Part shown: positions 34,855 through 42,560 of the stretch, in pieces
Position numbering within the stretch: position 1 is the stretch's first letter
Layout: each line of letters begins with the position of its first letter
Assembly (NCBI RefSeq): GCF_010671605.1
Contig: NZ_JAABOO010000003.1
Location: 311,993 to 375,992 of the forward strand
Source: Leptobacterium flavescens
Lineage (GTDB): Bacteria; Bacteroidota; Bacteroidia; Flavobacteriales; Flavobacteriaceae
Reading direction: 5' to 3'
DNA: 64,000 bases
The notes under the pieces: generated by a model
Database searches by the model: none
Seen by the model: the letters and a program-made list of their open reading frames with translations, nothing else
Told to the model about the DNA's origin: nothing
Translations under genes and position numbers: made by a program

Positions 34855-35652
34855 TTAAAGCTCATCCAGTAATTTTCCTGCTTCGGCATAATTAAAATTG
34901 GAGGGATCTTCCAGGATCTTTTTCAATACTTCTTCCGCTTTCTTTTTATTGTCCATTTTAAGGTATACCAGGGCCTTGAACCATTGTGCCTTGGAGCGGT
35001 CAAGAGCATCCGAATGCAGTAGCAGATCCAGTTCTCCTAAAGCTTTGTCGTAGCTGCCGGTCTGTAAATAGGACAGCCCGAGATAAAGATGTACGGCCGG
35101 ATCGGTTTCGGAAACAGTTTTTTTGTAGGCTTCAAAAAGATTGACCGCTTCGAAAAAATTGGAATCCCGAAAAGCTATAACCCCTCTGTTCAATTCATCC
35201 CCTGTTGCTCCCCGTTTAATTACCGAGGGAAGGTCGTCGGTACTGTAGTATTTTGCAAACAGTTCCTGCGGATTGCTCTCCTGCGTAAATATAAGTGCCA
35301 GGGAACTGATGATCAGAAGTCCTGCGATAGCAGCAGCCATCATAAAATACCTTCTTCTCCTGGCTTTTACAGCATCTTTCCTGTATTCATTTTGCACTTT
35401 GCGAAGCTTCTCTTCAACAGATCTTGCCTCATCACTCTCTAAAAAGCTCCGGAGATTTCCGGTATATTCATTTTCCGGGACCTCTTCCACAGAAGTGTTA
35501 TCGGTCAGATAAAGGTTAATTTCCCGGGCGAGTGTTACCTCCCTGAGGAGTTCTTCATTTTCCTCCATTTGCTTTTCAAAAAGCAGTGCTTCTTCCGGGG
35601 GCATGGTATTTCCCAGATATGCTTCTATTTTCATTTTCAGATCATCGTTCAT
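34855..35652 (-). CDS. Putative anti-sigma factor (single TM, periplasmic TPR-like domain)
   Basis: Overlaps the ECF sigma stop. The TM segment is MMAAAIAGLLIISSLALIF. C-terminal TPR-like helices. Confidence 0.45.
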   Translation of the reverse strand: MNDDLKMKIEAYLGNTMPPEEALLFEKQMEENEELLREVTLAREINLYLTDNTSVEEVPENEYTGNLRSFLESDEARSVEEKLRKVQNEYRKDAVKARRRRYFMMAAAIAGLLIISSLALIFTQESNPQELFAKYYSTDDLPSVIKRGATGDELNRGVIAFRDSNFFEAVNLFEAYKKTVSETDPAVHLYLGLSYLQTGSYDKALGELDLLLHSDALDRSKAQWFKALVYLKMDNKKKAEEVLKKILEDPSNFNYAEAGKLLDEL

Positions 35653-36218
35653 GATGTATATAAATTTTTATACCTGGGATCGGTTTTAATTAATTCCGTT
35701 AGCTTTTTTTTGCATTTATGAACCCTCTGGAATGCTGCATTTTCAGTAGCATAGGAGAATTTCTTCACTATGATATTGTAAGGGACTTTATTGAAATAGG
35801 CCTTTAACAATTTAGAGCAATTTTCTGATAAACGGTTGATCATTTCTTCAAATAATTCCCAGCGTTCCTGTTGGATAACAGCTGCCAGATGATTATCGTC
35901 TTTTTCTTTTAGTTCAAAAAACCCCTCATTTCTTATCTCTTTTTTTCTTTTATTGAGTTCTTTTAACCACAAATTCCTGCAGATCGTAAAAAAATAAGCC
36001 TCAAAAGAAGACTTTATCAACACTTCCTTTACTTTGGCCCGGCTGATCAGTTGAAACAGTCCGTTGTGAAAAACTTCTTCCGCATCGTTGGCCGTGCCTT
36101 TATTGTTCTTTACATAAGACAAAACTTTAGGGTACAGGCTGTCGTAAAGTAAGCGTATAGTCAATTCATCACCGTTCAAAAGTGCTTTGATAGTGGGATG
36201 CGTTGAGGAGGGCTCCAT
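35649..36218 (-). CDS. RNA polymerase ECF-type sigma-70 factor
   Basis: Sigma-70 region 2 (…FEAYFFTICRNLWLKE…) and region 4 HTH. 189 aa. Confidence 0.8.
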   Translation of the reverse strand: MEPSSTHPTIKALLNGDELTIRLLYDSLYPKVLSYVKNNKGTANDAEEVFHNGLFQLISRAKVKEVLIKSSFEAYFFTICRNLWLKELNKRKKEIRNEGFFELKEKDDNHLAAVIQQERWELFEEMINRLSENCSKLLKAYFNKVPYNIIVKKFSYATENAAFQRVHKCKKKLTELIKTDPRYKNLYTS

Positions 36219-36350
36219 AAATTTTTTATCTATTAAAGGGTAAGATTTAAAATTAACAATAACTAATAACTAAAGTACAGTTTTTAAATTTTTTTAGGTA
36301 AAATCCTTTAAAATTTAGAGATTTATAGTATTAACCATCAATTTTATTTT

Positions 36351-36716
36351 ATGAAAAAAAAGGTTTTAGCGCTCTTTTCGGCCATTCTGTTAATTGCGGG
36401 ATGCTCTGAAGAAGAGATAATTGAGCCGGTAGAAACGGTAAATGTAGAAACTTCTGTCCAGAGCCTGGAAGCAGAAAGAGGATTGCAGATAAATGGCCTG
36501 GGAGGGACCACTATCCAGATACACTATAATCACAGTCTGACGATAAGCGAGATCGAAGATATCCGGAGGGAGTATTTCCTGGCTTTTCCCTGCCTGGATA
36601 TGTGCATTCTTCAGCCTACCGATCCTTATCAGGATGTCTGGTGCCACGATTGTAAAGCCGGAGATGAAAATGAAGTACAACAGACGGTAGCCAATGATCC
36701 CAGATTAGGAGATTAA
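36351..36716 (+). CDS. Small lipoprotein with 4-Cys C-terminal segment
   Basis: Lipobox LIAGCSEEE. CLDMCILQ…WCHDCKAG. Confidence 0.4.
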   Translation: MKKKVLALFSAILLIAGCSEEEIIEPVETVNVETSVQSLEAERGLQINGLGGTTIQIHYNHSLTISEIEDIRREYFLAFPCLDMCILQPTDPYQDVWCHDCKAGDENEVQQTVANDPRLGD

Positions 36717-36744
36717 TACGAATAATTCCCATTTTAAAATATCA

Positions 36745-39504
36745 ATGAAAGACAGACAGGGTCACTCATATCGATTCATCAGGAACGCTTGCTGGGTGAT
36801 CCTGTTTTTTTCCGGTTCTCTTTTTTCCCAGGGAGTGGGGGAATTAAAACGAATTACAGCCGCAAAATTTTCAACGGAAGAAAAAATTGCCAAAATAGAT
36901 TCGCTGATCCTTCTGTACGAAAAGGAAAAAAATGATTCTTTGGAGTATGTATATGAAAGGTATGCGGATTGGTTGTATGATGTGAGAGGATTAAAGAGTG
37001 CCATCCCCTATTTAAATAAAACACTGGACCTTGCAACATCAAGGCCAGTTAAGGACAGTACGTTTATACAGAATAGTGCCTTGTTCCTGGCATTTTGCTA
37101 TAATATTAACAAGCAATATCACAAAAGTATTGCGGCCAGCAGGGAGGTACTTCTTATAAATGACAAGAATAGAGCTGCTGTAAGAACCTATGATCAGCTG
37201 GGTTTTGCTTATTCCAGGATCCCCGACTACTACAAATCCCTGGAGAATTATGAACTGTACGCTTCCCTGATCAGGGTTGACGAAAAAAGAATAAGATCCC
37301 TCAGAAAAGCTCACAAAAATATCATTGCCGTATGCCTGGATATCAATACAGCTGAGAGCTTCAGAAAGGGCTTGAAATATGCCATGACTGCCGATTCCCT
37401 TTCTTCCGTATATCCGATTGATTCTGCCACTCTTTATGAGACCAAACTAAACCTGGCAACACTGTATAATCAGTATGAAACACTGGATATCGGGAAGGCA
37501 TTCGGATATTATAATGAGGCCCTGGAGATCGCCAAAAAGGTAAAAGATACTTCCAAAATAAGGGATATTTATATGCTTATCGGGAATCTGTTTAACCAGA
37601 CCGAACCCGACAGATCCCTGGAATATCTGGAGAAAGCCCTGGTACTGGCCGAACCGGAAAAAGATCCGTTTAACAGCTACCAGATCTATTCCAATATCAG
37701 CTTTACCCACGGACTGAATGAGGAGTATGAAAAAAGCCTGGAATACACACATAAAAGCCTGGAGTATCTGATAGGAGATAACCTCAGGGATCATAAAAGC
37801 ATTAACCGTAACCTCTTTATAAATTCTGACTATAAAGAAAACCTCCTCAATGCATTACCCAAGCTGGGGGAGACCTATCTTAAGTATTATGAAAAAACCG
37901 GAGATCCGGAATTCCTGGATAAGAGTATACATTATTTTAAAGAGACCGATTATGTGATCGATCTGCTGAAAATAAACAGCAGGGAATTCAGATCCCGCCT
38001 CTTCTGGCGCAAATTAAGCACAGATATTTACGGGAAAGCTATCAGGGCCTGTTATTTGAAAGGAAATATTGAGGATACTTTTTACTTTATGGAGAAAAAC
38101 AAGGCACTCCTGCTTCAGGAGGATATAAATACTCAGCAATTCAAAAAGTCCCTGGAGTTACCCGACTCGATCATCCGACGGGAAGAAACCCTGAGAAGAA
38201 AATTATTCGGGATAGAAAACGCCTTAAAAGAAACAAAAGAAGTAACTGTGCTCGATTCTCTTAAAAAAGAACTGATCGACCGCAAAAGAGAACTTTCTAT
38301 CCTTCAGGACAGCATAGGCCCTAAGGAAGGCGTTGCAGGCCTGGAACCGATTATTTTGGACCTGGATGCTGTAAAGAAAAAAATAAAGGAAGATGAGGTG
38401 GTATTGGAGTATCATATATCTATTGATGACGGATACGGAATATACACCAACAGGGAGAAAGGGTATTTGCTGATGATCACCCAAAGTGAAACACGGCTCT
38501 TTGAGATCCCGGACCTTCCTTCTTTAAAAGAGGAAATTACCTCCCTGCTGAGGTATTTTGAAAGCCCCTTCCGGACCAATGGGGAGATATCCGATTTTAC
38601 TGCTCTGTCAAACCGGGTCTTTAAACGCCTGCTCCCATCGGAAGAGATCCGCCTAAGCATTAAAAACAAAAAGCTGACGATTGTACCAGATAGTTATCTG
38701 TCTCTCCTGCCTTTTGAAGCGCTTTCGGTTTCGGAAGATAAGCTGTCTTATCTGATCCGGGATTGTGATATTCACTATTTGTATTCAAATTCGTTTCTCG
38801 AAGGAATGGAAAGGTCGAAACATGTAGAAAATAATTTTCTGGGAGTGGCTCCTTCTGATTTTAATGATAAGGAACTGTTACCCCTCCAGAATAACAAACA
38901 GGAACTTTTAAGCCTGGAGCAATATTACAGGGGAAGATCACTGATAAGCGGGGAAGCTTCCAAAGAGAACTTTCTGGAAGCCCTGTCCGGTTCCGGGATC
39001 ATTCACCTTGCAACCCATGCCAATGCAGAGGAATCGTCTGATCCGTGGATCGCTTTTAATGATGAAAAATTAAAGCTGGAAGAATTATACCTCACTGCAA
39101 ATAATGCTTCTTTAGTGGTGCTGAGCGGATGTAATACCTCATTAGGGAAACTGGAAACCGGAGAAGGGGTGATGAGCCTGGCCCGCGGATTCTTTTATTC
39201 GGGCTCCCGCAGCGTAATTTCAAGCTTGTGGAGTATAGACGATAAATCGACTTCCTTTATAGTTGATGAGTTTTACAGGAATACAAGTTCAGGCCAGTCC
39301 AAATCTCAGGCATTACGCAATGCCAAATTAAAATACCTGGACACCTACAGCCATTCGGAAGCATCTCCTCATTACTGGGCATCTCTTATTCTTTTGGGAG
39401 AGGACGACCTTTTAAAAGGAACACCTTTTAACTGGATACCATATCTGCTGATAGCGGCTCTCCTTCTGATCTTTTTTATAGCTTTCAGGTACTTCCGGAG
39501 GTAA
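36745..39504 (+). CDS. TPR-repeat protein with CHAT (caspase-like, clan CD) domain and C-terminal TM anchor
   Basis: Signal/TM at the N-terminus, many TPR-like helices. CHAT His-Cys dyad context IIHLATHA… and VVLSGCNTSLG. C-terminal helix WIPYLLIAALLLIFFIAF. Confidence 0.75.
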   Translation: MKDRQGHSYRFIRNACWVILFFSGSLFSQGVGELKRITAAKFSTEEKIAKIDSLILLYEKEKNDSLEYVYERYADWLYDVRGLKSAIPYLNKTLDLATSRPVKDSTFIQNSALFLAFCYNINKQYHKSIAASREVLLINDKNRAAVRTYDQLGFAYSRIPDYYKSLENYELYASLIRVDEKRIRSLRKAHKNIIAVCLDINTAESFRKGLKYAMTADSLSSVYPIDSATLYETKLNLATLYNQYETLDIGKAFGYYNEALEIAKKVKDTSKIRDIYMLIGNLFNQTEPDRSLEYLEKALVLAEPEKDPFNSYQIYSNISFTHGLNEEYEKSLEYTHKSLEYLIGDNLRDHKSINRNLFINSDYKENLLNALPKLGETYLKYYEKTGDPEFLDKSIHYFKETDYVIDLLKINSREFRSRLFWRKLSTDIYGKAIRACYLKGNIEDTFYFMEKNKALLLQEDINTQQFKKSLELPDSIIRREETLRRKLFGIENALKETKEVTVLDSLKKELIDRKRELSILQDSIGPKEGVAGLEPIILDLDAVKKKIKEDEVVLEYHISIDDGYGIYTNREKGYLLMITQSETRLFEIPDLPSLKEEITSLLRYFESPFRTNGEISDFTALSNRVFKRLLPSEEIRLSIKNKKLTIVPDSYLSLLPFEALSVSEDKLSYLIRDCDIHYLYSNSFLEGMERSKHVENNFLGVAPSDFNDKELLPLQNNKQELLSLEQYYRGRSLISGEASKENFLEALSGSGIIHLATHANAEESSDPWIAFNDEKLKLEELYLTANNASLVVLSGCNTSLGKLETGEGVMSLARGFFYSGSRSVISSLWSIDDKSTSFIVDEFYRNTSSGQSKSQALRNAKLKYLDTYSHSEASPHYWASLILLGEDDLLKGTPFNWIPYLLIAALLLIFFIAFRYFRR

Positions 39505-39609: not shown

Positions 39610-41193
39610 ATGAACGAACTCATCCTGCAATTACTTCACAGATCCCATGTATTTCACATAGATAAAAACGATCTGGAACTTCAGTTGATCTCTCACTCTG
39701 CGTACCCCAGCCTGAAAGCGGTAACCGATACTCTCGATTATTTTGGAATAGAAAATATAGCAGCAAATGTTCCGGTAGATGCCCTGGATCAGCTGCCGGA
39801 GAATTTCCTGGCGCTTATAGATGAAGAAGGCGAGACGGAACTGGTATTGGTCAAAAGAAAAAAAACAGATATCCACCTGAAGACCGGAGCCGGAAAAAAA
39901 GTAAAAATGCCGGCCCGGGAATTTGTAAACAAATGGACAGGAACCATCATTGCCGTTGAAAAAGAAGAGAAAAAAGAAAAGGATGCTGTTTTAAAGCAAA
40001 TAGATCTGAAGCTGGTATTCGCAGGATTTGCGGCTTTAACCGTGTTACTGACTATTACCCTGAATGGAGAGATCGTCCGGGCATTATATGTGCTGCTGGC
40101 TTTTCTCGGACTTGGGGTAAGCTATTTTACGGTGAAGAGCGACCTGGGTATAGAAGACAGATTAGTGACCAGGGTGTGTACTGCCATTTCCGGAAAGGGA
40201 GAAGGTTGTAAAGGGGTTATTAACTCTCGTGAAGGCAAACTGTTCAACGCGGTTGGCCTGAGCGATATATCGGTAATATATTTTGCCGGTATCATGGTGG
40301 TCCAGGCAATTGCAGGATTTGACAAAGCTTTCTTCAGCTTACTGTCTTTATGCGCTTTACCGTTTATTGCCTTTTCTCTCTATCTGCAGGCTTTTAAATT
40401 AAAACAATGGTGTTCTTTATGCATAGTAATATCCTCAGTATTGATCTCCCAGTTTGTCCTCCTGTCATTTGGTTCTGCAAACTGGGATCTTTCTTTGAAA
40501 TACCTTTTTAATGCAGGTCTGATCTTTCTTATGGTAGCGGGCGGATGGTATTTGCTGAAAAACCTATGGAAAGACAGGGTTCAGTACAGGGCTACTCTTA
40601 AGGAATTTTACACTTTTAAAAGAAACGGAGACCTTTTTCTTTCTGCCTTAAAAAGCAGGGAGCCGATGACGCAAAATGCACTGGAAAGCCATCACGGACT
40701 TCTTTTTGGCCATCCGAAGGCATCGATCAGGATAACGGCAATTACCAATCCGCTTTGCGGTTTCTGTGAAGAACCTTTTAAAGTATATAGCGGATTATTA
40801 AAAGATCAACCGGAAGAAATACAGCTCCATCTTATTTTCAATGTTCCCGACAATGAGGAGAATAAAGCTACTCAGATCGGATTGAAGATCCTCTCCCTTT
40901 ACGAACAGAACAGGGCCAAGGCTTTTGAAGCTCTGGAGAAGTGGTTTTACAACCGGGATATCGATGCCTGGCTGAAGATCTATGAAAATATCAATATTAG
41001 CCCTCAGGCCCGGGAAATGGCAGAAAAACAGCGACAATGGTGTGCGGACCAGGCCATTAATTATACCCCGGAAACCATTGTTAACTCCTACTACTTTCCT
41101 AAAAGGCAGTATAAAATAGAAGACCTCCGGTTTTTTACCGAAAACCTCAGGGAGCTCAATGTAGAAAGCAGGAAAAGCGGTACTGCTGTCTGA
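39610..41193 (+). CDS. Three-domain protein: N-terminal peptidase-C39-like domain (catalytic Cys to Ser), VKOR-family membrane core, C-terminal thioredoxin/DsbA-like domain
   Basis: N-terminal LQLISHSAYPSLKAVTDTLDYFGI aligns to the C39 QxDxxDCGxACL…YG motif with Ser at the Cys position. VKOR loop Cys pair VCTAISGKGEGC. TM CxxC WCSLC. Trx-fold CxxC NPLCGFCEE. Confidence 0.75.
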   Translation: MNELILQLLHRSHVFHIDKNDLELQLISHSAYPSLKAVTDTLDYFGIENIAANVPVDALDQLPENFLALIDEEGETELVLVKRKKTDIHLKTGAGKKVKMPAREFVNKWTGTIIAVEKEEKKEKDAVLKQIDLKLVFAGFAALTVLLTITLNGEIVRALYVLLAFLGLGVSYFTVKSDLGIEDRLVTRVCTAISGKGEGCKGVINSREGKLFNAVGLSDISVIYFAGIMVVQAIAGFDKAFFSLLSLCALPFIAFSLYLQAFKLKQWCSLCIVISSVLISQFVLLSFGSANWDLSLKYLFNAGLIFLMVAGGWYLLKNLWKDRVQYRATLKEFYTFKRNGDLFLSALKSREPMTQNALESHHGLLFGHPKASIRITAITNPLCGFCEEPFKVYSGLLKDQPEEIQLHLIFNVPDNEENKATQIGLKILSLYEQNRAKAFEALEKWFYNRDIDAWLKIYENINISPQAREMAEKQRQWCADQAINYTPETIVNSYYFPKRQYKIEDLRFFTENLRELNVESRKSGTAV

Positions 41194-41282
41194 AAAGAAG
41201 GATAAAATAACCTGCGCAGGGAAGACACAAGTCCCAAGTGTCTATAAATGTTTGGGAACCGATTAATCTTTAAACTTTAATT

Positions 41283-41465
41283 ATGTTAAAAAACATTTTA
41301 AAACTGGAAGGAACTCAGGAATTGGGTAAAAACGAACAGCGTCAAATCAGTGGTGGAGTGTCCGGCGGGCCGATTTACTGCGACTCCGATGCAGATTGTG
41401 CTATTGTATGCGGAAAGTGCGTAGGCTTCGGGATTTGCCTTCATGCTGTACCTGCCTGTGCTTAA
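41283..41465 (+). CDS. Double-glycine-leader precursor peptide, 6-Cys core (bacteriocin/RiPP-like)
   Basis: Leader MLKNILKLEGTQELGKNEQRQISGG fits L(-12) E(-8) I(-4) G(-2) G(-1). Core VSGGPIYCDSDADCAIVCGKCVGFGICLHAVPACA. Confidence 0.6.
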   Translation: MLKNILKLEGTQELGKNEQRQISGGVSGGPIYCDSDADCAIVCGKCVGFGICLHAVPACA

Positions 41466-41565: not shown

Positions 41566-41748
41566 ATGGTAAAAGCAATTTTAAGTTTTGCTGAGGAACT
41601 CGGCAAAGAACAACAAAAAAGTATTATAGGGGGCGGGAACACATATACGGAGCGGCAATGTGCCACGCATAGTGATTGCCCTCCGGGTTACTGCTGTAAT
41701 GACCCCAGAACGGGCATATGTGAGCCATCTGGCGGTGCATGCAGGTAA
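41566..41748 (+). CDS. Double-glycine-leader precursor peptide, 6-Cys core
   Basis: Leader …FAEELGKEQQKSIIGG. Core GNTYTERQCATHSDCPPGYCCNDPRTGICEPSGGACR. Confidence 0.55.
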   Translation: MVKAILSFAEELGKEQQKSIIGGGNTYTERQCATHSDCPPGYCCNDPRTGICEPSGGACR

Positions 41749-41815
41749 AAGACCAGACACAAACCCCGGGTGTCTTTAAATGTTCGGGGAATAGCTAATT
41801 TAAAATTCAAACATC

Positions 41816-42043
41816 ATGTTAAAAAACATTTTAAATGTAAAAGGAGTTCAGCAACTCAGCAAAGATGAGCAAAGAGCCATCGGAGGTGGGATGCTTGGAG
41901 TACAGTGTAACACTTTAAGCCAGTGCTCTCTTAATTGCAACGGAAGTACCGAAGAGTGTGTTGCAATAAGTATTCCTACAGGCGGAGGCCTGATAGAGCA
42001 CGTCGTATGTTACGAATGTGTAAGTACAATTAACCACCAGTAA
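41816..42043 (+). CDS. Double-glycine-leader precursor peptide, 6-Cys core
   Basis: Leader MLKNILNVKGVQQLSKDEQRAIGGG (LSxxE…I.GG consensus). Core MLGVQCNTLSQCSLNCNGSTEECVAISIPTGGGLIEHVVCYECVSTINHQ. Confidence 0.6.
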   Translation: MLKNILNVKGVQQLSKDEQRAIGGGMLGVQCNTLSQCSLNCNGSTEECVAISIPTGGGLIEHVVCYECVSTINHQ

Positions 42044-42080
42044 TGGTAAACCGGGCCTGAAGATATTCGGGCCTGTTTTT

Positions 42081-42560
42081 TTACAGCTCAGAACTGAGTT
42101 CGTTAAGCTTGTCGAAGATCATCTGGCTTTCCCAGCCTCTGTATAACAGGTAGGAGGTAAATTTCTTTTTCCTCAATTGAATATGCTGATCTTTGAGCTG
42201 TTCCCATCGCTTTTCGGAAAGCTCTTCAAAAGTATTGAAATAGTCTTCATTACTGATCTCTTTCATGGCAGAGCGGATATTGAACCTGGAGATGTCGCGA
42301 AACTTAAGCTCCTGTTCTATTCTTTTTCTCCCCCATTTTTTTATGTTGAATTTTCCCCGGGCAAAACTTCTGGCAAACCGCTCTTCATTCAGGTAATTGT
42401 GTTGAATGAGGTGAGTTACTATAAGATCTATAGCTTCCGGGATCATACGCATTTCCTTTAATCTGGCAACAACTTCTTTATGACATCTTTCCTGATAGGC
42501 ACAGAAGGATTCCAGTTTCCTGGTAGCTTCATCAACGGTATATGATCTTGAATTTCTCAC
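42081..42560 (-). CDS. recX: RecX-family regulatory protein
   Basis: About 159 aa of three-helix repeats. …AYQERCHKEVVARLKE… typical RecX. Confidence 0.7.
   Translation of the reverse strand: MRNSRSYTVDEATRKLESFCAYQERCHKEVVARLKEMRMIPEAIDLIVTHLIQHNYLNEERFARSFARGKFNIKKWGRKRIEQELKFRDISRFNIRSAMKEISNEDYFNTFEELSEKRWEQLKDQHIQLRKKKFTSYLLYRGWESQMIFDKLNELSSEL

Follow-up and report, generated by a model that had tools for sequence, protein, structure and literature searches.

We analysed a 64,000-nucleotide (nt) stretch of the Leptobacterium flavescens genome (contig NZ_JAABOO010000003.1, forward-strand positions 311,993 to 375,992; hereafter the window) and followed up one of its genes, which encodes a fusion of a C39-like domain, a VKOR membrane core, and a DsbA-like thioredoxin domain. 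Three genes for cysteine-rich peptides with double-glycine (GG) leaders lie downstream of it. We consider it somewhat likely that the fusion is a dedicated disulfide-forming enzyme for these peptides, acting before the leader is cleaved and the peptide is exported.

Architecture of the fusion protein

The product of the gene is 100% identical to GWK08_13790 of L. flavescens, a hypothetical protein. Its segments, as placed by the sequence and by an AlphaFold2 (AF2) model, are the following.

39610..41193, + strand: complete open reading frame (ORF) of 527 residues, comprising the C39-like domain, transmembrane (TM) helix TM0, the VKOR core, TM5, and the DsbA-like thioredoxin domain
39610..39960, + strand: C39-fold domain without catalytic triad, residues 1–117, the most conserved part of the protein
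40006..40065, + strand: predicted extra TM helix TM0, residues 133–152, placed by a family hydropathy peak, the AF2 helix 133–152, and conservation
40072..40470, + strand: VKOR four-helix core, TM1–TM4, residues 155–287
40495..40620, + strand: TM5 and helical stalk to the thioredoxin domain, residues 296–337, in the AF2 model
40690..41139, + strand: DsbA-like thioredoxin domain, residues 361–510

The initial annotation had proposed this combination of C39, VKOR, and thioredoxin domains, and Pfam, the AF2 model, and Foldseek bear it out. In the window protein, VKOR (PF07884) scored 46.9 bits against a cut-off of 27.5 (residues 159–284) and Peptidase_C39 a marginal 24.3 bits against 22 (residues 6–120), whereas Thioredoxin_4 (PF13462) remained below threshold, with 15.9 bits against 23.2 (residues 362–456). 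Across a set of 63 homologues (24–48% identity), VKOR was matched in all 63, Peptidase_C39 in 57 (best E 1.2e-9), and Thioredoxin_4 in 51 (E of at most 0.01). The full-length model, with a predicted local distance difference test score (pLDDT) of 87.5, supports all three domains. Since the Pfam profiles and the predicted structure agree, the triple fusion is confirmed at the level of profile and model. A search with the single protein sequence against the PDB gave no match.

The VKOR part has the four-helix-bundle fold, with the loop cysteine pair C190/C200 in CTAISGKGEGC (nt 40177–40179 and 40207–40209) and the CxxC motif CSLC (C268/C271, nt 40411–40422) at the start of TM4. The thioredoxin part has the thioredoxin fold with a helical insert, the CxxC motif C383-G-F-C386 (nt 40756–40767), and a cis-Pro loop with the invariant pair T486-P487 at the cis-Pro position; in the family profile, it matches 1z6m and ScsC (E 6e-9 to 1e-7). 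The three motifs quoted in the initial annotation, CTAISGKGEGC, CSLC, and CGFC, are thus all present. Among the 63 homologues, C190, C200, C268, C271, and C383 are invariant, and C386 is kept in at least 90%.

As a profile of the N-terminal domain (N-domain) against PDB sequences gave no significant C39 match (E 0.17), we relied on Pfam, hhalign, and fold comparison for its assignment. A separate model of residues 1–128 reached a pLDDT of 85.6, and Foldseek with the N-domain alone returned significant matches almost exclusively to C39 domains, which include all the top ones, with TM-scores of 0.67–0.77. The fold is somewhat nearer to the true peptidase domains of peptidase-containing ATP-binding cassette (ABC) transporters (PCATs), ComA, and LahT than to the C39-like domain of HlyB, to which the initial annotation had likened it.

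Three alignments fix the register of the N-domain. The Pfam match begins at profile position 18. The genuine PCAT encoded at L001, the closest complete locus, aligns by BLASTP with its residues 35–123 to residues 23–111 of the fusion (E 2e-5). When the N-domain family is aligned by hhalign to the C39 domains of ten co-located PCATs, residues 28–112 pair with 42–124 (probability 90%, E 1.4e-6). In this register, SHSAYPSLKAVTDTLDYFG corresponds to TTREGSSLLSISDTAEKIG, the third helix of the C39 fold, and Ser34 pairs with the structural serine of the EGSSLL motif in the PCAT. The idea that a serine stands in the place of the catalytic cysteine was therefore out of register, and Ser34 as a replacement nucleophile is ruled out by the three independent alignments. 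The catalytic Cys15 and the oxyanion Gln9 of the PCAT would map at or before the initiator methionine of the fusion, whose N-terminus begins at the helix that carries the cysteine in real C39 peptidases; that segment is missing. An in-frame 5' extension that would restore the cysteine was rejected, as the ORF begins at the earliest possible start codon and the homologues share this start.

The other catalytic residues are also replaced. His88 and Asp104 of the PCAT correspond to Thr76 and Thr92 in the window protein, and across the 63 homologues the triad positions hold E/D (position 2), T/K/D/S/E/N (position 76), and D/T/N/K (position 92), with no cysteine at all within the N-domain in 54 members. 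Lacking the Cys/His/Asp triad and the oxyanion Gln, the N-domain would be unable to cut. By its sequence, it is a dead C39 fold, a C39-like domain and not a peptidase, and the non-catalytic character proposed in the initial annotation holds for the whole triad, every position of which is replaced or missing.

The N-domain is nevertheless the best-conserved region of the protein: its mean identity to the window protein is 50%, whereas the VKOR core reaches 36% and the thioredoxin domain 38%. Helices 1–3 and the sheet of the C39 fold are present in the N-domain and highly conserved. TM0 is hydrophobic yet the least conserved segment (14% identity) and appears to behave like a mere spacer. We also observed a weak match (E 0.05) between positions 69–161 of the A2 profile and residues 95–183 of PCAT1, spanning the second half of the C39 domain, the linker, and the first TM helix. 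As this match runs from the C39 half into the TM helix, the N-domain and TM0 may have been taken as a single piece from a PCAT.

The fusion family is large, uncharacterised, and mostly found in Flavobacteriaceae. Searching 1.84 billion representative proteins with the N-domain profile gave 655 clusters (50% identity) at E of at most 1e-10. Nearly all of the best 150 clusters are 505–560 residues long with the domain at or near the N-terminus, the shorter ones being presumed fragments, and by this length and placement the N-domain subfamily is essentially confined to the fusion architecture. Databases name the relatives just "vitamin K epoxide reductase family protein" or "Peptidase C39 domain-containing protein", and our search of the literature turned up no relevant work on a C39-VKOR fusion. 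Scanning a single genome for each species, we obtained 157 relatives and kept 80 loci; these come mostly from Aquimarina, Kordia, Dokdonia, and Flavobacterium, with a few from Saprospiraceae, Ohtaekwangia, and Chryseobacterium bins. The family members at four loci (L002, L005, L032, and L039) come from short contigs that were assigned to Oligoflexales, Saprospiraceae, Ohtaekwangia, and Chryseobacterium bins, which reflects either horizontal spread beyond Flavobacteriaceae or mis-binning. L. flavescens itself has a second copy (P0244; 537 residues, 35% identical) on the same 849-kb contig, outside the window.

Cysteine-rich peptides beside the fusion gene

The peptide array follows the fusion gene on the same strand after a gap of 89 nt, which confirms the adjacency to three GG-leader, six-cysteine peptides described in the initial annotation.

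41283..41465, + strand: precursor peptide 1, leader MLKNILKLEGTQELGKNEQRQISGG, six-cysteine core
41566..41748, + strand: precursor peptide 2, leader MVKAILSFAEELGKEQQKSIIGG(G), six-cysteine core with C-C-CC-C-C spacing
41816..42043, + strand: precursor peptide 3, leader MLKNILNVKGVQQLSKDEQRAIGGG, six-cysteine core
42052..42085, + strand: terminator-like hairpin and T-run closing the array

For the comparison across loci, we scanned for ORFs of 35–130 residues with a G[GAS] motif whose start lies among the first 45 residues and whose end lies no earlier than residue 12, no cysteine before it, at least four cysteines after it, and a core of 15–90 residues. Starts of such ORFs concentrate 3' of the fusion gene on the same strand, with 70 in the first 500 nt and 23 in the next 500, and every remaining 500-nt bin around the fusion genes holds 0–3. 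The same-strand interval from -1 to +2.5 kb contains 121 peptide ORFs (0.45 per kb), compared with 37 elsewhere (0.014 per strand-kb), a 33-fold enrichment. At least one such peptide lies beside the fusion gene in 61 of 81 loci, in arrays of one to eight. This count and the enrichment fit the dedicated oxidative-folding role that the initial annotation had suggested. Its proposed co-occurrence of the fusion with adjacent cysteine-rich GG-leader genes holds for these 61 loci and fails in about 20 of the 81; due to the latter, its provision that the fusion should not occur without such neighbours is contradicted in part.

The leaders hardly vary from genus to genus: their common sequence is MLKNILNLEGAQQLSKKEQKSINGG, in which Ile occupies position -4, Glu -8, and Leu -12. 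The core sequences, in contrast, are hypervariable and contain four to nine cysteines, the number being even in 103 of 121 (four in 59, six in 42, and eight in 2). In 17 loci, the peptides are followed by genes for a PCAT with an intact Cys/His/Asp triad and an HlyD-family protein. Searching the window peptides with NCBIfam models gave no match. The core of peptide 2 (QCATHSDCPPGYCCNDPRTGICEPSGGAC) has a C-C-CC-C-C spacing typical of knottin or conotoxin frameworks, and Pfam matches this peptide weakly to one conotoxin and one nodulin family (E 0.09–0.3); a related CPPGYCC core also occurs in L011 and L041.

The proposed mechanism starts from the structure of LahT150, in which the leader forms a short helix whose residues -4, -7, and -12 occupy a hydrophobic groove formed between helices 1–3 and the sheet, about 20 Å from the catalytic cysteine (PMC6363468). 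At this distance from the active site, leader docking need not depend on the triad. The off-site groove, the retained helices 1–3 and sheet, the position of the N-domain as the best-conserved part, and the invariance of the leader are the reasons for the mechanism that we propose, and the strong conservation of the domain, parallel to that of the leader, suggests that docking is its role. The dead C39 domain would keep the leader-binding groove and dock the conserved GG leader, and the DsbA-like thioredoxin domain would oxidise the core of the tethered peptide. The thioredoxin domain would then be re-oxidised via the VKOR cysteines, with the electrons passing to menaquinone. Leader-guided disulfide formation probably precedes cleavage and export: if the soluble domains are cytoplasmic, the full precursor would be oxidised, and the PCAT would then cleave after the GG and export a cross-linked, knotted peptide. 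PCAT-type exporters likewise handle ring-containing class II lanthipeptides.

A conserved nucleotide element precedes many of the peptide genes. The window contains two copies, before peptides 1 and 3, and none before peptide 2.

41211..41257, + strand: copy 1, 5' of peptide 1, with the palindrome CCTGCGCAGG, then AGACAC, TCCCAA, GTGTCT, ATAAATGT, and TTGGGA
41755..41789, + strand: copy 2, 5' of peptide 3, AGACAC-AAA-CCCCGG-GTGTCT-TTAAATGT-TCGGGG

The consensus is TTCTTGCAAGGA-c-AGACAC-AAA-CTGTGA-GTGTCT-nTAAATGT-TCACAG, with the invariant core AGACAC...GTGTCTnTAAATGT; the element is about 50–60 nt long and ends about 25–30 nt before the ATG. Outside the window, the element is present for example at L001:11640-11690 and L022:11586-11636 and in L017, L018, and L029. 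A looser pattern locates it 5' of 38 of 112 peptide genes, and the exact 15-nt core is found in 17 of 80 loci. The CTGTGA/TCACAG helix, represented by TCCCAA/TTGGGA in copy 1, shows compensatory changes in five of its six pairs and is 94% paired, and none of 500 shuffles matched its covariation score or its number of cells with both sides changed. G-U pairs are seen on the sense strand. Hairpin 1 is weakly supported (72% paired), the single-sequence folding energies are unremarkable, and an Rfam search with the element gave no match. Pairing of AGACAC with GTGTCT together with the CTGTGA/TCACAG helix could form an H-type pseudoknot.

Membrane orientation and alternative explanations

In the VKOR-thioredoxin fusions known so far, five TM helices connect an N-terminus in the cytoplasm to a thioredoxin domain in the periplasm. 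The present family departs from this outward-facing arrangement, with six predicted TM helices and the opposite charge bias. Its mean hydropathy has six peaks, centred near residues 142, 166, 226, 250, 277, and 307, and the AF2 helices span residues 133–152, 155–178, 217–235, 239–263, 269–287, and 296–337. As six is an even number, the N-terminal C39-like domain and the C-terminal redox domain are predicted to lie on the same side of the membrane. The sixth helix, overlooked in the initial annotation, changes the topological logic of the protein.

To decide which side this is, we counted lysine plus arginine (K+R) in 216 full-length family members, with the co-located PCATs as controls. The three short turns on one face average 0.06, 0.07, and 0.19 K+R and contain none in 94%, 93%, and 81% of the sequences, whereas the four segments on the opposite face average 2.9, 3.9, 1.8, and 2.8. 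In the co-located PCATs, whose topology is known, the periplasmic turns have 0.24 and 0.29 K+R, and the cytoplasmic segments have 1.0–15, mostly at least 2. The TM4-TM5 loop of the Synechococcus VKOR carries an arginine and a lysine, and the same loop is uncharged in the fusion family. A profile search aimed at canonical VKOR controls returned the fusion architecture alone, and a query with a Synechococcus VKOR fragment for the same control set gave no match. The N-terminus shows no hydrophobic run of the signal-peptide kind, and the N-domain contains a mean of 15.6 K+R. By the positive-inside rule, this charge distribution predicts that the soluble domains and the VKOR active site are cytoplasmic. 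The missing signal peptide and the existence of leaders solely before PCAT cleavage are further reasons for this side. We judge a dedicated, leader-guided oxidase role to be fairly likely, and, given that role, a cytoplasmic orientation to be slightly favoured by these sequence features.

A number of observations weigh against a leader-guided enzyme in the cytoplasm. The cytoplasm is a reducing compartment. The nearest folds of the thioredoxin domain are periplasmic oxidases and isomerases (ScsC, DsbA, and BdbD). According to PMC13486548, most VKORs face outward, as do the bacterial ones of known orientation, and an inward-facing VKOR has so far been reported in Crenarchaea alone, for example in Aeropyrum pernix. 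The loop before the TM4 CxxC motif is uninformative on orientation, since the basic residue found there is shared with outward-facing VKORs. Between the fusion gene and the PCAT, some Flavobacterium loci (L033:11921-13336, L035, L036, and L057) encode a lipoprotein of about 470 residues that ends in a TlpA/redoxin domain (WCAPC), a hint of additional thiol chemistry in the periplasm. The 64-kb window contains no PCAT. About 20 of the 81 loci, mostly from Aquimarina and Kordia, have no adjacent cysteine-rich GG peptide, and in these two genera the fusion gene holds a fixed position after mreBCD-mrdA-rodA.

It is unlikely, though worth weighing, that the protein has the same dedicated role with both soluble domains in the periplasm and the VKOR facing outward, the C39-like domain then binding not the leader but the mature or partly folded peptide or another periplasmic partner. 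The outward orientation of the characterised bacterial VKORs, the extracytoplasmic work of the ScsC, DsbA, and BdbD relatives, and the TlpA-like lipoproteins would agree with this, and the even number of TM helices fits equally well. However, an N-domain of 130 residues with about 16 K+R would need translocation although it has no signal peptide, the stretch preceding TM0 is basic and the TM0-TM1 turn uncharged, and the turns that would become cytoplasmic are almost free of K/R, the opposite of the PCAT controls. Moreover, leaders should not reach the periplasm, because the PCATs in these loci keep their triads, and the coincidence of the best-conserved domain with an invariant leader would be left unexplained. 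Quite improbable, in our view, is a general envelope oxidase of Flavobacteriaceae that replaces DsbB and DsbA, with the peptides clustering at an insertion hot spot and the N-domain a relic or unrelated. The loci without a peptide speak for it, together with a recurrent site: in about 50 loci (L008-L016, L037, L040, and L044-L080), the fusion gene follows mreB-mreC-mreD-mrdA-rodA, with a DNA/RNA endonuclease gene on one side and an ABC permease and an S41 peptidase on the other. The site resembles a hot spot for island insertion whose cargo varies: peptides and the CHAT cassette described below are present at some of these loci and absent from others. The 33-fold enrichment of peptides directly downstream on the same strand argues against a housekeeping role, and peptides are also found in unrelated contexts (the window, L001, and the Dokdonia and Flavobacterium loci). 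Several genomes hold at least two copies, such as those with the two-cassette Dokdonia loci and L. flavescens with its P0244 paralogue, the highest conservation in the protein would not be expected of a relic, and the neighbours (PCAT, HlyD, and a LytTR regulator with its kinase) are of bacteriocin type.

The C39-like domain might instead dock the enzyme to the PCAT or another partner, or regulate leader cleavage by serving as a decoy; contact between proteins would then couple oxidation to export. The PCAT and HlyD genes after the peptides in 17 loci favour this; yet most loci, the window included, have no PCAT nearby, the conservation of the domain parallels that of the leader, and the leader groove is separate from the catalytic site in real C39 domains, so we give this coupling little credence. 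An active leader peptidase with a replacement nucleophile such as serine is by far the least probable. Ser34 is kept in 60 of 63 homologues and His29 in 51, but Ser34 takes the place of a structural serine, the segment that would hold the Cys and the oxyanion Gln is lacking, the residues at the His and Asp positions vary and are not catalytic ones, and 12 members have Asn or Asp in place of His29.

Genomic setting and relation to known systems

The genes around the fusion were compared by clustering the flanking ORFs and running Pfam on representatives. Upstream of the fusion gene, the window carries a cassette with the following members.

34855-35652, - strand: TPR membrane protein, putative anti-sigma factor, part of a divergent pair (34855..36218)
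35649-36218, - strand: extracytoplasmic function (ECF) sigma factor, of the same pair, which recurs with the cassette
36351..36716, + strand: small lipoprotein, 121 residues, member of the recurring cassette
36745..39504, + strand: TPR-CHAT protein, 919 residues, directly upstream of the fusion gene, with a signal-like N-terminus and a C-terminal TM segment

The TPR-CHAT gene recurs beside the fusion in about 12 loci, and the cassette of these four members is likewise found in about 12 loci, including the window (34855-39504), with L001, L004, L006, L007, L054, L058, L066, L071, and L077 as examples. L001 carries the full set: the cassette, the fusion gene, two peptides, a PCAT, and HlyD. Four Dokdonia loci (L004, L006, L007, and L054) have two complete cassettes, with ECF/anti-sigma pair, lipoproteins, CHAT, fusion, and peptides, within about 20 kb. 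The cassette probably regulates the locus. Several Flavobacterium-type loci have a LytTR response regulator and a histidine kinase.

With the Synechococcus VKOR (PDB 3KP9/4NV2), the fusion shares the four-helix core, the loop cysteine pair, the TM4 CxxC motif, and a C-terminal thioredoxin-fold domain with CxxC, which a further TM helix connects to the core. It differs in the added N-terminal C39-fold domain and TM helix (six versus five TM helices), in the DsbA type of its thioredoxin domain with a helical insert, and in its link to specific peptide substrates. Additionally, the loops that are cytoplasmic and basic in the Synechococcus protein have uncharged counterparts in the fusion, which suggests the opposite orientation. 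ApVKORi of Aeropyrum pernix, whose catalytic cysteines face the cytoplasm (PMC13486548), resembles the fusion in its predicted orientation; however, it is archaeal, has no link to leader peptides or a C39 domain, and the orientation of the fusion is just predicted.

Like the C39 domains of PCAT/AMS proteins (PCAT1, ComA, and LahT150), the N-domain is N-terminal, stands directly before a TM helix, and is tied to GG-leader peptides; unlike them, it has neither the triad nor the oxyanion Gln, and its partner is a redox module instead of an ABC transporter. The C39-like domain of HlyB keeps the His, has Tyr for the Cys, binds RTX substrates without a GG leader, and is part of an ABC transporter. 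Compared with HlyB (PDB 3ZUA), the fusion deletes the whole N-terminal catalytic segment and has a VKOR-thioredoxin module as its partner, so its dead C39 domain does not stand at the N-terminus of an ABC transporter as in HlyB-type proteins.

The closest functional precedent within the phylum is the bacteroidetocin locus, in which a five-TM protein and a thiol oxidoreductase are encoded beside a GG-leader peptide with four cysteines and a PCAT, and both accessory genes are required for full toxin activity (PMC6671954). Bacteroidetocin and fusion loci have in common the phylum Bacteroidota, a cysteine-bearing GG peptide, a multi-TM protein, a thiol oxidoreductase, and a PCAT. In the bacteroidetocin loci, however, separate proteins supply the accessory functions, a C39-like docking domain has not been described, and the peptides are class IIa-like with a 15-residue leader. 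In Firmicutes, the sublancin 168 operon (sunA-sunT-bdbA-sunS-bdbB) and pediocin PedC offer dedicated thiol-disulfide oxidoreductases beside a GG-leader peptide and a PCAT. The likeness to the fusion lies in dedicated oxidoreductases, including a quinone-linked membrane protein, that are encoded with the peptide. These enzymes act outside the cytoplasm after leader removal, have no leader-recognition domain, and have a DsbB homologue, not a VKOR, as the membrane partner.

Dedicated oxidoreductases in bacteriocin loci and VKOR-thioredoxin fusions are thus already known separately, and VKOR-DsbA fusions are known to replace DsbA and DsbB (PMC12453122). The novelty lies in a VKOR-thioredoxin module that has gained a docking domain of the leader type together with one more TM helix, and with them a predicted inversion; the literature that we searched held no description of a redox enzyme with its own leader-recognition domain. 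Taken to its full extent, our proposal would make the fusion the first bacterial inward-facing VKOR, driven by menaquinone, whose dead C39 domain captures the leader so that two to four disulfides form before PCAT cleavage and export, yielding a leader-guided class of cross-linked peptides, each precursor gene with a pseudoknot-like RNA element. We hold this complete version only tentatively.

If the docking is true, the leader-guided logic of peptide natural-product enzymes would extend to disulfide formation, and it would explain how one enzyme serves arrays of unrelated cysteine-rich cores. If the orientation is true, this would be a natural system that makes disulfide-knotted peptides in the bacterial cytoplasm, with a bearing on the production of disulfide-rich peptides, and the view of bacterial VKORs as always facing outward would be overturned. 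The hypervariable cysteine-rich peptides would then represent a leader-guided cross-linked class, like class II lanthipeptides but with disulfides. The fusion family, with its hundreds of 50%-identity clusters, marks a rich and untapped set of peptides in marine Flavobacteriaceae.

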